Part shown: piece after piece, positions 1-34,346 of the stretch | Layout of the letters: each line of letters begins with the position of its first letter | Position numbering within the stretch: position 1 is the first letter of the stretch | Origin: Escherichia coli | Lineage (GTDB): Bacteria; Pseudomonadota; Gammaproteobacteria; Enterobacterales; Enterobacteriaceae | Reading direction: 5' to 3' (one strand) | Length of the DNA stretch: 59,824 nt | Assembly (NCBI RefSeq): GCF_003334255.1 | Contig: NZ_QOWU01000028.1 | Notes under the pieces: generated by a model | Seen by the model: the letters and a program-made list of their open reading frames with translations, nothing else | Told to the model about the DNA's origin: nothing | The model's database searches: none | Position numbers and translations under genes: made by a program

Positions 1-106
1 AGCGCGGTGGTCCCACCTGACCCCATGCCGAACTCAGAAGTGAAACGCCGTAGCGCCGATGGTAGTGTGGGGTCTCCCCATGCGAGAGTAGGGAACTGCC
101 AGGCAT
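1..106 (+). rRNA. rrfD: 5S rRNA, 3' 106 nt (5' end lies upstream of the window)
   Basis: Identical to the matching part of the complete 5S copy at 232..351; ends in the canonical ...GGAACTGCCAGGCAT. Confidence 0.95.
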
Positions 107-118
107 CAAATTTAGCGT

Positions 119-194
119 GCTGATATGGCTCAGTTGGTAGAGCGCACCCTTGGTAAGGGTGAGGTCCCCAGTTCGACTCTGGGTATCAGCACCA
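119..194 (+). tRNA. thrV: tRNA-Thr (anticodon GGU)
   Basis: 76-nt sequence GCTGATATGG...TATCAGCACCA with CCA end and GGT anticodon in CTTGGTAAG loop; sits between two 5S genes as in rrnD. Confidence 0.95.
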
Positions 195-231
195 CTTTTT
201 AGGTTAAAGTTCGGCAGATTAGAAAAGAATT

Positions 232-351
232 TGTCTGGCGGCAGTAGCGCGGTGGTCCCACCTGACCCCATGCCGAACTCAGAAGTGAAACGCCGTAGCG
301 CCGATGGTAGTGTGGGGTCTCCCCATGCGAGAGTAGGGAACTGCCAGGCAT
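232..351 (+). rRNA. rrfF: 5S rRNA, complete 120 nt
   Basis: Starts TGTCTGGCGGCAGTAGCGCGGTGG, ends CTGCCAGGCAT; second 5S copy downstream of tRNA-Thr. Confidence 0.95.
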
Positions 352-27516: not shown

Positions 27517-30500
27517 GTGAGGCGATTGCCGGGGATTTTACTGCTTACTGGAGCCGCGCTCGTTGTGATCGCTGCCCTGCTGGTTAGCGGCCTGCGTATT
27601 GCTTTACCGCATCTTGACGCCTGGCGTCCGGAAATCCTCAACAAAATAGAATCCGCGACTGGCATGCCGGTAGAAGCCAGTCAGCTCTCAGCCAGCTGGC
27701 AGAATTTTGGCCCGACGCTTGAAGCACACGACATCCGTGCAGAACTAAAAGATGGCGGCGAATTTTCGGTTAAACGCGTTACTCTGGCGCTGGATGTCTG
27801 GCAGAGCCTGTTACATATGCGCTGGCAGTTTCGCGACCTCACTTTCTGGCAGCTGCGCTTTCGCACCAACACTCCTATCACCAGCGGTGGTAGTGATGAC
27901 AGTCTGGAAGCCAGTCACATCAGCGATCTGTTTCTTCGTCAATTTGACCATTTCGATCTTCGCGACAGTGAAGTCAGTTTCCTGACGCCATCCGGTCAGC
28001 GCGCCGAGCTGGCGATCCCACAACTCACCTGGCTGAACGATCCACGTCGACACCGTGCGGAAGGCCTGGTAAGCCTCTCCAGCCTTACCGGACAGCACGG
28101 CGTGATGCAGGTGCGCATGGATTTGCGCGATGATGAGGGGTTGTTAAGCAATGGTCGCGTCTGGCTCCAGGCGGATGACATCGACCTGAAGCCGTGGCTC
28201 GGTAAATGGATGCAGGACAATATTGCGCTGGAAACGGCACAGTTCTCCCTTGAAGGCTGGATGACGATCGACAAAGGCGATGTAACCGGCGGTGACGTCT
28301 GGCTGAAACAGGGCGGTGCCAGCTGGTTGGGCGAGAAGCAAACGCATACGCTGTCGGTGGATAATCTGACCGCGCATATTACGCGTGAAAATCCGGGCTG
28401 GCAGTTCTCTATTCCCGATACACGGATCACGATGGACGGCAAACCCTGGCCGAGCGGAGCATTGACGCTGGCCTGGATACCGGAACAGGACGTTGGCGGC
28501 AAAGACAATAAACGCAGTGACGAACTCCGGATTCGCGCCAGTAATCTGGAGCTGGCAGGCCTGGAGGGCATACGCCCGCTGGCCGCGAAACTTTCACCTG
28601 CACTGGGTGATGTTTGGCGCTCCACACAACCGAGCGGCAAGATTAACACTCTGGCGCTGGATATCCCGCTTCAGGCGGCAGACAAGACCCGTTTTCAGGC
28701 ATCGTGGAGCGATCTGGCCTGGAAGCAATGGAAATTATTACCGGGTGCGGAACACTTCTCCGGGACGCTTTCCGGCAGCGTTGAAAATGGTTTGCTTACC
28801 GCGTCGATGAAGCAGGCAAAGATGCCTTACGAAACGGTATTCCGTGCGCCACTAGAAATCGCCGACGGCCAGGCAACTATAAGCTGGCTGAACAATAACA
28901 AAGGTTTCCAGCTGGATGGGCGTAATATTGACGTTAAAGCCAAAGCCGTCCATGCGCGCGGCGGTTTTCGTTACCTGCAACCTGCTAACGATGAACCCTG
29001 GCTGGGTATTCTGGCTGGCATCAGTACCGATGATGGTTCACAAGCCTGGCGCTATTTCCCGGAAAACTTGATGGGTAAAGACCTGGTTGATTACTTAAGT
29101 GGCGCGATTCAGGGCGGTGAAGCGGATAACGCGACGCTGGTTTATGGTGGCAATCCGCAACTCTTCCCCTATAAACACAACGAAGGTCAGTTTGAAGTGC
29201 TGGTGCCGCTGCGCAACGCGAAGTTTGCCTTCCAGCCGGACTGGCCTGCATTAACTAACCTTGATATTGAACTGGACTTTATTAACGACGGTTTATGGAT
29301 GAAAACCGATGGCGTTAATCTGGGCGGCGTGCGCGCGAGTAATCTTACCGCAGTGATCCCTGACTACTCAAAAGAAAAACTGCTGATTGACGCTGACATT
29401 AAAGGTCCGGGTAAAGCCGTTGGCCCTTACTTTGATGAGACACCGCTGAAAGATTCTCTGGGTGCGACCCTGCAAGAACTCCAGCTCGACGGCGATGTGA
29501 ATGCTCGCTTACATCTTGATATCCCGCTGAACGGCGAACTGGTAACCGCGAAAGGTGAAGTGACGCTGCGTAATAACAGTCTGTTTATCAAACCACTCGA
29601 CAGCACCCTGAAAAATTTGAGCGGTAAATTCAGCTTTATCAATAGCGATCTGCAAAGTGAACCACTGACAGCAAGCTGGTTTAATCAGCCGTTGAACGTG
29701 GATTTTTCCACCAAAGAAGGGGCAAAAGCCTACCAGGTAGCGGTAAACCTCAACGGTAACTGGCAACCGGCGAAAACCGGCGTTCTGCCTGAAGCGGTGA
29801 ACGAAGCATTGAGTGGCAGCGTGGCGTGGGATGGTAAAGTGGGCATTGATCTGCCTTATCATGCTGGTGCGACCTATAACATAGAGCTGAACGGCGATCT
29901 AAAGAATGTGAGCAGTCACTTACCTTCACCGTTAGCCAAACCTGCGGGTGAACCACTAGCGGTAAACGTTAAGGTTGATGGCAATCTCAACAGCTTTGAA
30001 TTAACCGGACAGGCTGGTGCGGATAATCATTTCAATAGCCGCTGGTTGCTCGGTCAAAAGCTGACGCTCGATCGTGCTATTTGGGCGGCAGACAGTAAAA
30101 CGCTCCCGCCGTTGCCGGAACAAAGTGGCGTTGAACTCAATATGCCGCCGATGAATGGTGCCGAGTGGCTGGCCCTGTTCCAGAAAGGCGCTGCGGAGAG
30201 TGTCGGTGGTGCAGCGAGTTTCCCACAACACATAACGTTACGTACGCCTATGTTGTCACTGGGAAATCAGCAATGGAATAACCTGAGTATTGTTTCGCAA
30301 CCGACGGCAAATGGCACCCTGGTTGAAGCGCAAGGGCGTGAAATCAACGCCACGCTAGCGATGCGTAATAACGCGCCGTGGCTGGCGAATATCAAATATC
30401 TTTATTACAACCCGAGCGTGGCGAAAACTCGTGGTGATTCAACGCCGTCATCACCTTTCCCGACAACGGAGCGCATTAACTTCCGTGGCTGGCCGGACGC

Positions 30501-31317
30501 CCAAATACGATGCACAGAGTGCTGGTTCTGGGGGCAAAAATTCGGTCGCATTGACAGTGATATCACCATTTCTGGCGATACGTTAACGCTGACCAATGGA
30601 CTGATTGATACTGGTTTCTCGCGGCTTACTGCCGATGGTGAATGGGTTAATAATCCGGGGAATGAACGTACCTCGCTGAAAGGAAAACTGCGCGGGCAGA
30701 AAATTGATGCCGCCGCAGAATTTTTTGGTGTCACGACGCCCATACGCCAGTCGTCATTTAATGTGGATTACGATTTACACTGGCGCAAAGCACCCTGGCA
30801 GCCAGATGAAGCGACGTTGAATGGCATCATTCATACTCAACTGGGTAAAGGCGAAATTACCGAAATCAATACCGGACATGCCGGGCAATTGCTGCGCTTA
30901 TTGAGCGTAGATGCCCTGATGCGTAAGCTGCGTTTTGATTTCAGAGACACTTTTGGCGAAGGGTTCTATTTTGACTCCATTCGCAGCACCGCGTGGATTA
31001 AAGACGGCGTTATGCACACCGACGACACGCTGGTGGATGGCCTGGAGGCGGATATCGCCATGAAAGGGTCGGTAAATCTGGTACGTCGCGACCTGAATAT
31101 GGAAGCGGTTGTCGCACCAGAGATTTCTGCGACGGTGGGCGTGGCTGCGGCTTTTGCGGTTAACCCCATTGTTGGCGCGGCAGTGTTTGCCGCCAGTAAA
31201 GTGCTGGGGCCGCTGTGGAGCAAAGTCTCCATTTTGCGCTATCACATTTCGGGTCCGCTGGACGATCCGCAAATCAACGAAGTGTTGCGCCAACCGCGTA
31301 AAGAAAAAGCGCAATGA
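27517..31317 (+). CDS. yhdP: Large AsmA-like inner-membrane protein
   Basis: 1266-aa ORF with single N-terminal TM helix. Confidence 0.9.
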   Translation: MRRLPGILLLTGAALVVIAALLVSGLRIALPHLDAWRPEILNKIESATGMPVEASQLSASWQNFGPTLEAHDIRAELKDGGEFSVKRVTLALDVWQSLLHMRWQFRDLTFWQLRFRTNTPITSGGSDDSLEASHISDLFLRQFDHFDLRDSEVSFLTPSGQRAELAIPQLTWLNDPRRHRAEGLVSLSSLTGQHGVMQVRMDLRDDEGLLSNGRVWLQADDIDLKPWLGKWMQDNIALETAQFSLEGWMTIDKGDVTGGDVWLKQGGASWLGEKQTHTLSVDNLTAHITRENPGWQFSIPDTRITMDGKPWPSGALTLAWIPEQDVGGKDNKRSDELRIRASNLELAGLEGIRPLAAKLSPALGDVWRSTQPSGKINTLALDIPLQAADKTRFQASWSDLAWKQWKLLPGAEHFSGTLSGSVENGLLTASMKQAKMPYETVFRAPLEIADGQATISWLNNNKGFQLDGRNIDVKAKAVHARGGFRYLQPANDEPWLGILAGISTDDGSQAWRYFPENLMGKDLVDYLSGAIQGGEADNATLVYGGNPQLFPYKHNEGQFEVLVPLRNAKFAFQPDWPALTNLDIELDFINDGLWMKTDGVNLGGVRASNLTAVIPDYSKEKLLIDADIKGPGKAVGPYFDETPLKDSLGATLQELQLDGDVNARLHLDIPLNGELVTAKGEVTLRNNSLFIKPLDSTLKNLSGKFSFINSDLQSEPLTASWFNQPLNVDFSTKEGAKAYQVAVNLNGNWQPAKTGVLPEAVNEALSGSVAWDGKVGIDLPYHAGATYNIELNGDLKNVSSHLPSPLAKPAGEPLAVNVKVDGNLNSFELTGQAGADNHFNSRWLLGQKLTLDRAIWAADSKTLPPLPEQSGVELNMPPMNGAEWLALFQKGAAESVGGAASFPQHITLRTPMLSLGNQQWNNLSIVSQPTANGTLVEAQGREINATLAMRNNAPWLANIKYLYYNPSVAKTRGDSTPSSPFPTTERINFRGWPDAQIRCTECWFWGQKFGRIDSDITISGDTLTLTNGLIDTGFSRLTADGEWVNNPGNERTSLKGKLRGQKIDAAAEFFGVTTPIRQSSFNVDYDLHWRKAPWQPDEATLNGIIHTQLGKGEITEINTGHAGQLLRLLSVDALMRKLRFDFRDTFGEGFYFDSIRSTAWIKDGVMHTDDTLVDGLEADIAMKGSVNLVRRDLNMEAVVAPEISATVGVAAAFAVNPIVGAAVFAASKVLGPLWSKVSILRYHISGPLDDPQINEVLRQPRKEKAQ

Positions 31318-31382: not shown

Positions 31383-31796
31383 AACATAACCGTAGGTCGG
31401 ATAGGGCGTTCACGCCGCATCCGGCAGCCGTTGCCTGATGCGACGCTGTGCGTCTTATCAGGCCTACAAACGGAACATAACCGTAGGTCGGATAAGGCGT
31501 TTACGCCGCATCCGGCAGCCGTTGCCTGATGCGACGCTGTGCGTCTTATCAGGCCTACAAACGGAACATAACCGTAGGTCGGATAAGGCGTTTACGCCGC
31601 ATCCGGCAGCCGTTGCCTGATGCGACGCTGTGCGTCTTATCAGGCCTACAAACGGAACATAACCGTAGGTCGGATAAGGCGTTTACGCCGCATCCGACAG
31701 CCGTTGCCTGATGCGACGCTGTGCGTCTTATCAGGCCTACAAACCGGAACATAACCGTAGGCTGGATAGGGCGTTCACGCCGCATCCGGCAGCCGT
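31383..31796. repeat. BIME/REP array: about 4.5 tandem copies of a 91-bp unit
   Basis: Unit AACATAACCGTAGGTCGGATAAGGCGTTTACGCCGCATCCGGCAGCCGTTGCCTGATGCGACGCTGTGCGTCTTATCAGGCCTACAAACGG recurs with period 91 at 31383, 31474, 31565, 31656, 31747; the ORF track shows duplicate 60-aa ORFs as a by-product. Confidence 0.9.
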
Positions 31797-33283: not shown

Positions 33284-33334
33284 TAATTTCACTATTTTCA
33301 GAAGGATAATTAATCTTTCTACGTGCACGAACGG

Positions 33335-33371
33335 TCCCCTCGCCCCTTTGGGGTGAGGGTTAGGGTGAGGG
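33335..33371. repeat. GC-rich hairpin element between tldD and aaeR 3' ends
   Basis: CCCCTCGCCCCTTTGGGGTGAGGGTTAGGGTGAGGGG: CCCCTCGCCCC pairs with GGGGTGAGGG (one G-U); second GGGTGAGGGG half repeated. Confidence 0.6.
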
Positions 33372-33416
33372 GAACCCGTTGGCACAGGTTTGTACAACGT
33401 AACAGTACAATATGAA

Positions 33417-34346
33417 TTACTTCTCTTTCCCGCGCCCGTGCATCTCCTGAAACAATTTACCGACCTCAACAAAATAATCCGTCAGCGAGTTGATCACGAC
33501 CTGTACCTTCAGCGGCAGCTTATCTTTTTCGGTATATAACGCATAAACCGGGCGTGGATCTGACTGGTAACGCGGCAGCAGGATCTCCAGCTCCCCACGA
33601 TTGATCTCGTTGATCACCCACATCAGCGGCACGTAGGCGATCCCGGCACCCGCCGTCAGCCAGCGCACCAGCGTCATCGGATCATTAGTCACAAATCTTC
33701 CTTGTGGGATCAGGCGAGTCGAGATCCCTTCCGGTGCGATCAGTTCAAATTCATTGTCGGGCCGCACGCTGTATTCAAGCCATGAATGACTACTCAAATC
33801 GGCGGGTTTTTCCGGTATGCCGTATTGTGTGAGATAGCTTTTCGCGGCGCACACCACCATTGGCATCGCGCCCAGACGGCGGGAAAACAGGCTGGAATCC
33901 TGCAACGCGCCGACGCGGATCACCACATCCAGACCGTCGGCAATCAGGTCGGGGGCTGGAATTCCGGTAACCAGATTGACGCTCAAACCTGGGTATTCTT
34001 TCAGCATTTTGGCTGTCAGCCCGGCGAGAACATTTTGTGCCATAGTTGAAGAACAGCCAATGCGTAGCGTCCCGATGGGGGTGTTATTGAAGGCATACAG
34101 TTGCTCATGAACATCCTGCACTTCATGAAGCATACGACGGCAGCCCTGGTAGTAAATTCTACCGGCTTCGGTCAGGCCAATGCTGCGTGTGCTACGGTTT
34201 AACAGCTTTACCTGCAACTCATCTTCCAGTTTTGATACCGTCTGACTGATGGACGAAACGCTCATCTGTAGCTGTCTGGCGGCGGCGGTAAAAGAGCCAA
34301 ATTCAACTACTTTGGCAAACACCGACATGCGTTTTAGTCGTTCCAT
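33417..34346 (-). CDS. aaeR: LysR-family regulator of aaeXAB
   Basis: 309-aa ORF with N-terminal LysR HTH, divergent from aaeXAB. Confidence 0.9.
   Translation of the reverse strand: MERLKRMSVFAKVVEFGSFTAAARQLQMSVSSISQTVSKLEDELQVKLLNRSTRSIGLTEAGRIYYQGCRRMLHEVQDVHEQLYAFNNTPIGTLRIGCSSTMAQNVLAGLTAKMLKEYPGLSVNLVTGIPAPDLIADGLDVVIRVGALQDSSLFSRRLGAMPMVVCAAKSYLTQYGIPEKPADLSSHSWLEYSVRPDNEFELIAPEGISTRLIPQGRFVTNDPMTLVRWLTAGAGIAYVPLMWVINEINRGELEILLPRYQSDPRPVYALYTEKDKLPLKVQVVINSLTDYFVEVGKLFQEMHGRGKEK

Follow-up and report, generated by a model that had tools for sequence, protein, structure and literature searches.

Between the convergent stop codons of tldD and aaeR in Escherichia coli lies a series of GC-rich blocks predicted to fold into a strong hairpin, and the question that this locus raises is what the element is and what, if anything, it does for the transcripts of the two genes. 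The original prediction, made from a 59,824-nt stretch of contig NZ_QOWU01000028.1 (assembly GCF_003334255.1; the whole stretch is hereafter called the window), was that the element belongs to a small dispersed family of hairpins recurring at gene 3' ends, that it is not a canonical intrinsic terminator, and that it possibly acts on RNA 3' ends. The window is E. coli K-12-like, and its tldD-aaeR spacer is 100% identical to that of MG1655 and many other strains.

A BoxC copy between the tldD and aaeR stop codons

The GC-rich blocks are present in the order CCCCTCGCCCC-TTT-GGGGTGAGGG-TTA-GGGTGAGGGG at 33336-33372 on the plus strand (Table 1), that is, with each end shifted by one nucleotide from the 33335-33371 given originally; in all else the original description is exact. 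The distance from the tldD stop codon to the first block is 53 nt, and that from the last block to the aaeR stop codon is 44 nt. The third block, which had been described as a hairpin half repeated once more, is in fact the family-defining block; together with the preceding blocks it makes up a hexamer repeat, (GGGTNA)3, and it is required for the in-vitro triplex and the four-tract G-quadruplex discussed below. The RefSeq annotation of the spacer holds no feature, leaving this copy unannotated.

Table 1. Coordinates in the window of the tldD-aaeR element, its parts and the neighbouring features, with the basis of each assignment.
Feature	Position	Strand	Basis
tldD CDS, 481 aa	31838-33283	+	ORF list and RefSeq annotation of identical E. 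coli sequence
tldD-aaeR spacer between convergent stops, 133 nt	33284-33416	.	sequence reading
Outer stem, left half GTGCACGAACGG, locus-specific, pairs with 33376-33385	33323-33334	+	predicted folds
Whole BoxC copy including left flank (..CGGTC) and right flank (GAA)	33324-33375	+	nhmmer profile, E = 6.7e-18
C-rich block CCCCTCGCCCC, hairpin 5' arm	33336-33346	+	sequence and pattern match
First loop TTT	33347-33349	+	sequence reading
Middle G-rich block GGGGTGAGGG, pairs with the C block via one G.T(U) wobble	33350-33359	+	predicted fold and alignment
Second loop TTA	33360-33362	+	sequence; marks 'type A' in Holder et al. 2015 (PMC4666352)
Third block GGGTGAGGGG	33363-33372	+	sequence reading
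Outer stem, right half CCGTTGGCAC	33376-33385	+	predicted folds
Antisense-aaeR stretch crossed by the tldD transcript	33376-33718	+	Adams et al. 2021 supplementary file 2 and coordinate mapping
aaeR CDS, 309 aa	33417-34346	-	ORF list and RefSeq annotation of identical E. coli sequence
nanA-nanT two-block hairpin TTTCCCCTCGC..GGGTGAGGGGAAA, not part of the tldD-aaeR element	51187-51221	+	sequence

This element is one copy of BoxC, also known as PIT (potential intrastrand triplex), TMECO type A and HPG1. BoxC is a GC-rich repeat of roughly 50 bp that occupies intergenic regions, about 18-30 of them per E. coli genome (the number of detectable copies being about 18-20), and prior publications describe both the repeat and this very copy. 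According to Holder et al. 2015 (PMC4666352), BoxC was found in the 1990s, redescribed by Maher's group as PIT and then renamed TMECO, with the consensus CCCTCNCCC-N3-6-GGGNGAGGG-N3-GGGNGAGGG. Table 1 of that paper gives TMECO no. 14 as CCCTCGCCCCTTTGGGGTGAGGGTTAGGGTGAGGGG, labelled 'A mm', at MG1655 3,390,494-3,390,529; in NC_000913.3 these coordinates belong to the spacer between aaeR and tldD, and the sequence is identical, in every letter, to the 36-nt core of our element. The second loop is TTA, as in type A, rather than the CCG of type B. Kaplan et al. 2016 (PMC5100583) catalogue the same copy as HPGQ no. 37 of group HPG1 and place it between aaeR and tldD, and BoxC was also recovered as a known stem-loop family by Petrillo et al. 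2008 (PMC2267715). The published BoxC/PIT/TMECO identity had been missed in the original prediction.

That the element belongs to a small dispersed family was predicted correctly, and the genome-wide search proposed at the time does return additional copies: a 49-nt query with the element at its centre gave hits in each of the 5426 complete E. coli genomes (median, 18 places per genome), and 17 sibling copies were taken from 12 other MG1655 loci. A BoxC profile built from 11 MG1655 type-A copies, and used with nhmmer, gives a repeat length of about 52 nt, wider than the 37 nt originally delimited. These 11 aligned copies share an invariant core that runs from C-GTCCCCTC to GGGGAA, with C-GTCCCC and GGGGAA as the invariant left and right flanks, respectively, and the further left flank gcGCaCgnACGGTC being weakly conserved. 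The tldD-aaeR copy has the same three blocks, TTA loop, CGGTC and GAA flanks and dispersed intergenic distribution as the family, and does not differ in substance from it except for one base in the middle block, which is T here and A in the ten other aligned copies; the T results in a G.T(U) wobble where most type-A copies have a G.A mismatch.

The gene contexts of the family are mixed. Among the 13 MG1655 loci examined, four are convergent (tauD/hemB, frlR/yhfS, zntA/tusA and tldD/aaeR), seven are tandem, and two (yagA/yagE and fepB/entC) are divergent, i.e., promoter regions. BoxC is thus common after gene 3' ends but is not confined to them, 2 of the 13 loci being exceptions. Since a 3'-end role is impossible in divergent promoter regions, such a role cannot explain the existence or the spread of the repeat, whatever it may do at individual loci.

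The three-block element itself is more than chance: the TMECO consensus pattern matches the window once, at 33337-33371 (+), and matches none of 100 shuffled versions. The RNA of the plus strand is predicted to fold with -34.7 kcal/mol (z -2.8; one of 200 shuffles equally good) and that of the minus strand with -32.2 kcal/mol (z -3.4; 0 of 200), and the locus-specific outer stem is predicted in every E. coli allele subjected to folding. Sequence reading finds no T-run after the hairpin on either strand, and a terminator scan called no site at the element. A canonical Rho-independent terminator shares with this BoxC copy a GC-rich stem-loop downstream of a gene but has, in addition, a U-tract of 7-8 nt, which the copy lacks on both strands; a canonical intrinsic terminator is accordingly ruled out, in agreement with what had been predicted. 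A search of Rfam (4227 families) returned no match at 33324-33385, and with no REP match there, we also rejected membership in the REP/BIME elements (including naRNA4). The Rfam matches in the window all lie elsewhere and comprise a 5S rRNA, one tRNA, and four copies of naRNA4 (REP325), the latter at 31395-31737.

Variation of the spacer within E. coli and across genera

The tldD-aaeR spacer (133 nt) is found at 99% identity or higher in only 957 of 5422 genomes, compared to 5280 of 5410 E. coli genomes for a comparable stretch of the nanA-nanT region. To a rough approximation, based on 30 evenly spaced rows of the ranked BLAST list and on RefSeq genomes, which are a non-random sample, the alleles are distributed as follows: full length (333 bp) in 11 of the 30 rows (about 37%), 326-328 bp (5-7 nt shorter) in 14 (about 47%), 321 bp (12 nt shorter) in 4 (about 13%), and a broken match in one, which represents a strain with ISEc13 inserted within the element. 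Roughly 60% of the sampled E. coli genomes thus have a third block that is about 6 or 12 nt short of full length. In an alignment of seven alleles, what the shortened ones have lost from the (GGGTNA)3 tract is one or more hexamers, complete or nearly so. With such a period, the G-rich arm would be a likely site of slippage in the DNA, and slippage in the hexamer repeat would be sufficient to account for both the 6- and the 12-nt deletion alleles. No empty site, of the kind by which the insertion of a MITE would be recognised, was seen among E. coli genomes for this locus (5416 of 5426 genomes hold at least 80% of the region), and the other genera have a different spacer sequence.

The alleles differ in which structures they could form. 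Alleles with the 12-nt deletion are plain hairpins, e.g., CCCCTCGCCCC-TTT-GGGGTGAGGGG, and in none of the shortened alleles is a three-block triplex possible, or are there as many as four G-tracts. In contrast, folds of -25 to -36 kcal/mol are predicted on either strand for all seven alleles with an intact right flank, five of which have a third block shortened by 5-7 or 12 nt. Hence, judged by predicted folds, the hairpin is the conserved feature among the inspected alleles and the triplex capacity is not. In our view, the capacity for triplex and quadruplex formation belongs to the K-12 allele and is not the selected feature at tldD-aaeR.

To look at the same position in other genera, we reached the orthologous spacers via AaeR homologues and their encoding contigs; a protein of '[Enterobacter] lignolyticus' was left out, its synteny with tldD being lost. 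The spacer of Salmonella enterica (122 nt) holds REP-like palindromes, and that of metagenome contigs whose AaeR is 94% identical (94 nt) holds two REP-like hairpins. The spacer of Enterobacter cloacae (49 nt) is nearly all a full type-A BoxC, in the orientation opposite to that of E. coli. Unrelated GC hairpins fill the remaining spacers, i.e., those next to a Pseudescherichia vulneris-named protein on a metagenome contig and a protein named from an 'Escherichia sp.' MAG (45 nt each, the two hairpins resembling each other), a Kosakonia-named protein on a metagenome contig and an E. asburiae-named protein (43 nt each, again resembling each other), and a Cronobacter malonaticus-named protein (40 nt). 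In every orthologous spacer fetched, the predicted fold is a strong hairpin, with energies that range from -19 to -52 kcal/mol. It is therefore the strong predicted hairpin, not the sequence, that is conserved at the tldD-aaeR position across genera. The opposite orientation of the copy in Enterobacter cloacae suggests an independent arrival, and BoxC appears to have come to this gene pair at least twice. With respect to the comparison across related species suggested originally, then, BoxC does occur in one of them, but the other genera fetched have REP-like or unrelated hairpins in its place.

Transcript ends, Rho and a proposed role of the hairpin

The available transcriptome data for the tldD-aaeR copy itself come from the Rho side. 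In supplementary file 2 of Adams et al. 2021 (PMC7815308), termination by Rho is reported antisense to aaeR, for a region at 3390148 (-) that has a Rho score of 5.99 and p = 5.5e-18. On the tldD strand, this peak (position 33718 of the window) is reached some 350 nt after the element, and it follows that the tldD transcript reads through the element; the same file has no entry for a Rho region on the aaeR strand. The first 100 nt after the element (33376-33475) are C-rich and G-poor (C/G = 1.93), as is expected near a Rho-loading site. Regarding the 3' ends proper, supplementary file 1 of the same study has no dominant Term-seq end for tldD or aaeR, the SMRT-Cappable-seq supplements have no transcript end at this copy, and the TERMITe tables have no entry for it. 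The two genes may be too weakly expressed for their 3' ends to be listed, but the missing end counts against a 3'-end role at this copy.

Sibling copies do have listed ends. By matching BoxC words to the 61-nt strings in supplementary file 1 of Adams et al. 2021, we found ends after glnH (847200, minus strand, 58 nt after the stop codon, and seen in all three growth conditions), cstA (632098, plus strand, 99 nt), yjbD (4231270, minus strand, 89 nt), ppiC (3959467, minus strand, 65 nt) and lldD (3781065, plus strand, 48 nt). In these five sibling copies, folding places the dominant 3' end 2-4 nt past the hairpin, in both orientations of the repeat, with no U-tract. In the G-rich orientation the RNA ends within the second loop, and the third block is thus outside the stable RNA. 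Dar and Sorek 2018 (PMC6061677) reported that Rho-terminated E. coli mRNAs end just past stable U-less stem-loops that protect them against trimming by PNPase and RNase II, with the Rho-loading site located just downstream, and the ends at the BoxC siblings are the signature described there. The literature that we searched holds no link between BoxC and mapped RNA 3' ends. It should be noted that a Term-seq end beside a hairpin may come from trimming or from termination assisted by the hairpin, and that the data do not tell the two apart. Overlaid on 3'-end data in this way, the RNA 3'-end role proposed originally becomes plausible through the ends at five siblings, but not through any end reported at the tldD-aaeR copy.

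Of the functions considered for the tldD-aaeR element, a role at the RNA 3' end is the best supported one, and we infer it for this copy. Specifically, we favor the hypothesis, with a probability of roughly 0.55, that the U-less BoxC hairpin caps and shields both convergent mRNAs after Rho termination. Under this hypothesis, BoxC would sit in the 3' UTR of both tldD and aaeR, and either RNA would fold into a very stable hairpin without a U-tract. The hairpin would not stop RNA polymerase, the tldD transcript would pass through, and Rho would end it a few hundred nt further on, inside antisense aaeR, as the published data indicate. The hairpin would then act as a barrier against exonucleases that sets and stabilises the steady-state 3' end of the tldD mRNA, and the same barrier on the other strand would probably do so for the 3' end of the aaeR mRNA. 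The stability of the hairpin is computed, and the barrier role at this copy is the part that we infer. The known protective stem-loops of Rho-terminated mRNAs resemble the tldD-aaeR copy in being U-less, GC-rich hairpins soon after a stop codon, and in having C-rich sequence and a Rho region downstream, which the copy matches on the tldD strand; they have their steady-state end at the stem-loop, a feature that BoxC displays at the five siblings, whereas none is listed at the tldD-aaeR copy. Such 3'-end stabilising of Rho-terminated mRNAs is carried out by REP elements and other U-less stem-loops. REP elements, although mRNA stabilisers as well, are a different sequence family and have no counterpart of the third BoxC block.

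It is important to note that BoxC has been without a demonstrated function since the 1990s and that publications have centred on exotic DNA structures, while a simpler and testable role is suggested here, namely that of a two-way protective hairpin for Rho-terminated transcripts. This role is based on the 3' ends at five siblings, on Rho termination downstream, and on the hairpin being kept without its sequence. Its value is modest and interpretive, and it carries little weight as a discovery. The tests of Maher's group, in the part of them that Holder et al. 2015 (PMC4666352) summarise, did not address exonuclease protection, and no function of BoxC is demonstrated so far in what is related there.

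Alternatively, the element might have no function at this locus, being a selfish or decaying repeat in a tolerant convergent spacer that is passively transcribed and folds only incidentally. The published tests, as far as they are summarised in Holder et al. 2015 (PMC4666352), revealed no function, and the low share of genomes with a near-identical spacer (against that for nanA-nanT), the ISEc13 insertion within the element in one strain, the presence of BoxC in all kinds of intergenic contexts, and the opposite-oriented, apparently independent arrival at the same gene pair in Enterobacter would all fit such a repeat. We nevertheless find this explanation rather unlikely, since a strong predicted hairpin occurs in every allele and genus examined despite differing sequence, which looks like selection, and dominant RNA 3' ends are found at five sibling copies; neither a transposase nor a RAYT was found beside the motif copies searched in four distant genomes, or in the gene contexts given by Holder et al. 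2015 (PMC4666352). For an action at the DNA level, Holder et al. proposed that the unwound G-rich strand forms an intrastrand purine-motif triplex that disturbs replication or repair and causes local variability. Type-A and type-B oligonucleotides, with and without mismatch, do form stable triplexes in vitro (Tm 70-82 C, by CD and NMR), and TMECO loci were more variable than control loci in 56 E. coli strains (PMC4666352), in line with the polymorphism of the tldD-aaeR locus; the type-A 'mm' sequence of Holder et al. is apparently one base different from our copy. We consider an action of this kind improbable, given that in-vivo DMS footprinting left the triplex guanines unprotected and duplex oligonucleotides stayed duplex (PMC4666352), that ordinary slippage explains why a hexamer repeat has become about 6 or 12 nt shorter, and that about 60% of the sampled genomes lack part or all of the third block and have kept the hairpin.

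The remaining two hypotheses concern transcription directly. A non-canonical, bidirectional terminator without U-tract, serving both tldD and aaeR, would fit the strong hairpin between convergent stops and the RNA 3' ends at sibling copies, and was speculated on by Kaplan et al. 2016 (PMC5100583). The lack of the U-tract and the location of the Rho signal on the tldD strand, some 350 nt further downstream, which implies that polymerase passes, both speak against it, and Maher's group, in the tests that Holder et al. 2015 (PMC4666352) summarise, saw neither promoter nor terminator activity, nor any effect on RNA polymerase; termination at the hairpin itself is very improbable on these grounds. 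Kaplan et al. further suggested that such sequences switch between G-quadruplex, hairpin and duplex and in this way regulate transcription of the neighbouring genes. The K-12 allele does contain a canonical four-tract motif, GGGG-TGA-GGG-TTA-GGG-TGA-GGGG (at least 3 G per tract, loops of 1-7 nt), the copy is listed in that study, and ion-dependent CD changes were observed there for a related HPG2 oligonucleotide (PMC5100583). Yet the predicted hairpin, at -34.7 kcal/mol, compares with -12.6 kcal/mol for the quadruplex of the G-rich part alone, the 18 imino signals in the NMR of Holder et al. were read as triplex and not quadruplex (PMC4666352), the 6- and 12-nt deletion alleles hold only three or two G-tracts, and the position of the element is downstream of both genes rather than in a promoter, all of which makes a regulatory switch the least probable of the readings considered here.

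Relatives of the element in and beyond E. coli

The closely related element reported originally after nanA is a real two-block hairpin, in the nanA-nanT region of the window (Table 1), and shares the words CCCCTCGC and GGGTGAGGGG with BoxC; for the pattern of these two words, 0.01 occurrences per window are expected. The relationship is weak: the BoxC profile gives E = 0.13 for it, as opposed to 6.7e-18 for the tldD-aaeR copy, and aligns to it as it does to a 12-nt deletion allele. Supplementary file 1 of Adams et al. 2021 (PMC7815308) has no Term-seq end at the hairpin. We therefore did not accept it as a full BoxC member, considering its E-value, its two blocks, its nearly invariant sequence and the missing Term-seq end, and, from its sequence, it may be a decayed or short relative of BoxC.

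More broadly, one could hypothesize that BoxC represents a second, REP-like class of plug-in 3'-end hairpins, which land repeatedly and independently, are retained after stop codons for shielding against exonucleases, and whose triplex and quadruplex capacity is a by-product or part of a single-stranded DNA mobility mechanism. We offer this view tentatively, as a possibility that is somewhat more doubtful than not. A species-wide scan for the three-block motif returned at least 120 stretches, nearly all from one Mitsuaria genome, and did not cover the Enterobacteriaceae; it hence gives no taxonomic distribution. Among the matches listed, the same three blocks occur in Mitsuaria (Burkholderiales), with 145 matches in 0.9 Mb, and also in Methylomirabilota, in Contendobacter and in an unclassified MAG; the loops and flanks of these distant copies are lineage-specific, and many of the copies form inverted pairs.

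A tblastn search with the E. coli RayT as the single query, over 120 loci of four distant genomes that together span 1.07 Mb and contain 166 motif copies, returned only noise (E of 3 or higher) near the motif. The single rayT of K-12 belongs to the REP family. In REPIN/RAYT systems, i.e., REP doublets mobilised by a tyrosine transposase, a transposase gene is part of the system, whereas no RAYT-like gene was detected beside the BoxC-like motif copies in this 1.07 Mb, and Holder et al. 2015 (PMC4666352) reported no transposases or integrases near TMECO copies. What BoxC does have in common with REPINs is that both are short imperfect palindromes that often occur as inverted pairs: at least 27 such pairs are found at the Mitsuaria loci, and 5 of the 18 TMECO loci of MG1655 are inverted pairs as well (Holder et al. 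2015, PMC4666352).

BoxC and other hairpins in the tldD-aaeR spacer

A full type-A BoxC nearly fills the 49-nt tldD-aaeR spacer of Enterobacter cloacae (contig JBGESJ010000007.1, comparison locus L148:1728-1776) and is inverted relative to the E. coli element, which suggests that the element arrived at this convergent gene pair independently in the two species. Stem words resembling CCCTC and GAGGG are also present in the otherwise unrelated spacer hairpins of Cronobacter and Kosakonia (see the table), and these may be either coincidence between GC-rich stems or a sign of remote kinship with BoxC. Within E. coli, the tldD-aaeR BoxC of O127:H6 EPEC1 (NZ_LT903847.1, a record described as an E2348/69-derived construct) is interrupted by an IS4-like element, ISEc13 (L126:1672-3057), inserted directly 3' of CCCCTCGCCCCTCTGGGGTTC.

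BoxC-like blocks outside E. coli

In 0.9 Mb of loci from Mitsuaria chitosanitabida NZ_BCYP01 (L009-L115), the three-block motif is matched exactly at least 145 times, and the block sequences are the same as those of E. coli despite the host belonging to a distant class. In these copies GCTTGC is near-fixed as the first loop, the right flank TCTTCGGG is conserved, and at least 27 neighboring pairs are inverted, with a spacing of 25-272 nt. The blocks CCCTC[T/G]CCC, GGGAGAGGG and GGGTGAGGG also occur beyond Proteobacteria among the matches listed (see the table); the loops of these copies differ, and some form inverted pairs with 15-31 nt between them.

RNA 3' ends at related MG1655 sequences

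A degenerate BoxC, GGGGAGAGGATTAGGGTGAGGGG, is located between glnH and glnP of MG1655 (847000-847400, L142), and a strong Term-seq 3' end maps to it, 58 nt past the glnH stop, in all three growth conditions; this could account for differential expression within the glnHPQ operon. Outside the window, GGGTGAGGGATAACCTCGCCCTTTTT is followed by a Term-seq 3' end at MG1655 2945855 (-) (Adams 2021, supplementary file 1, PMC7815308). This sequence is a canonical terminator that shares its words with BoxC but in reverse order, GGGTGAGGG and CCTCGCCC being followed by a T-run.

Other features of the window

The naRNA4 array, located between tldD and the long ORF that precedes it (27517-31317), is an already-known feature, and the RNA genes at the start of the window appear to be the distal part of an rRNA operon.

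Coordinates of the features (L-numbers are comparison loci from other genomes; positions after a colon are within the locus)
Feature	Location	Strand	Sequence or source
Block matches, Methylomirabilota MAG	L001-L008		
Block matches, unclassified MAG	L116-L120		
Cronobacter spacer hairpin, stem words	L153:1346-1385		TCGCCCCTC..GAGGGGCGA
Kosakonia spacer hairpin, stem words	L150:1725-1767		TTCACCCTCT..AGAGGGTGAA
naRNA4 (REP325, nucleoid-associated ncRNA), four tandem copies	window 31395-31737	+	Rfam
5S rRNA (cut at window start), tRNA, second 5S rRNA	window 1-349	+
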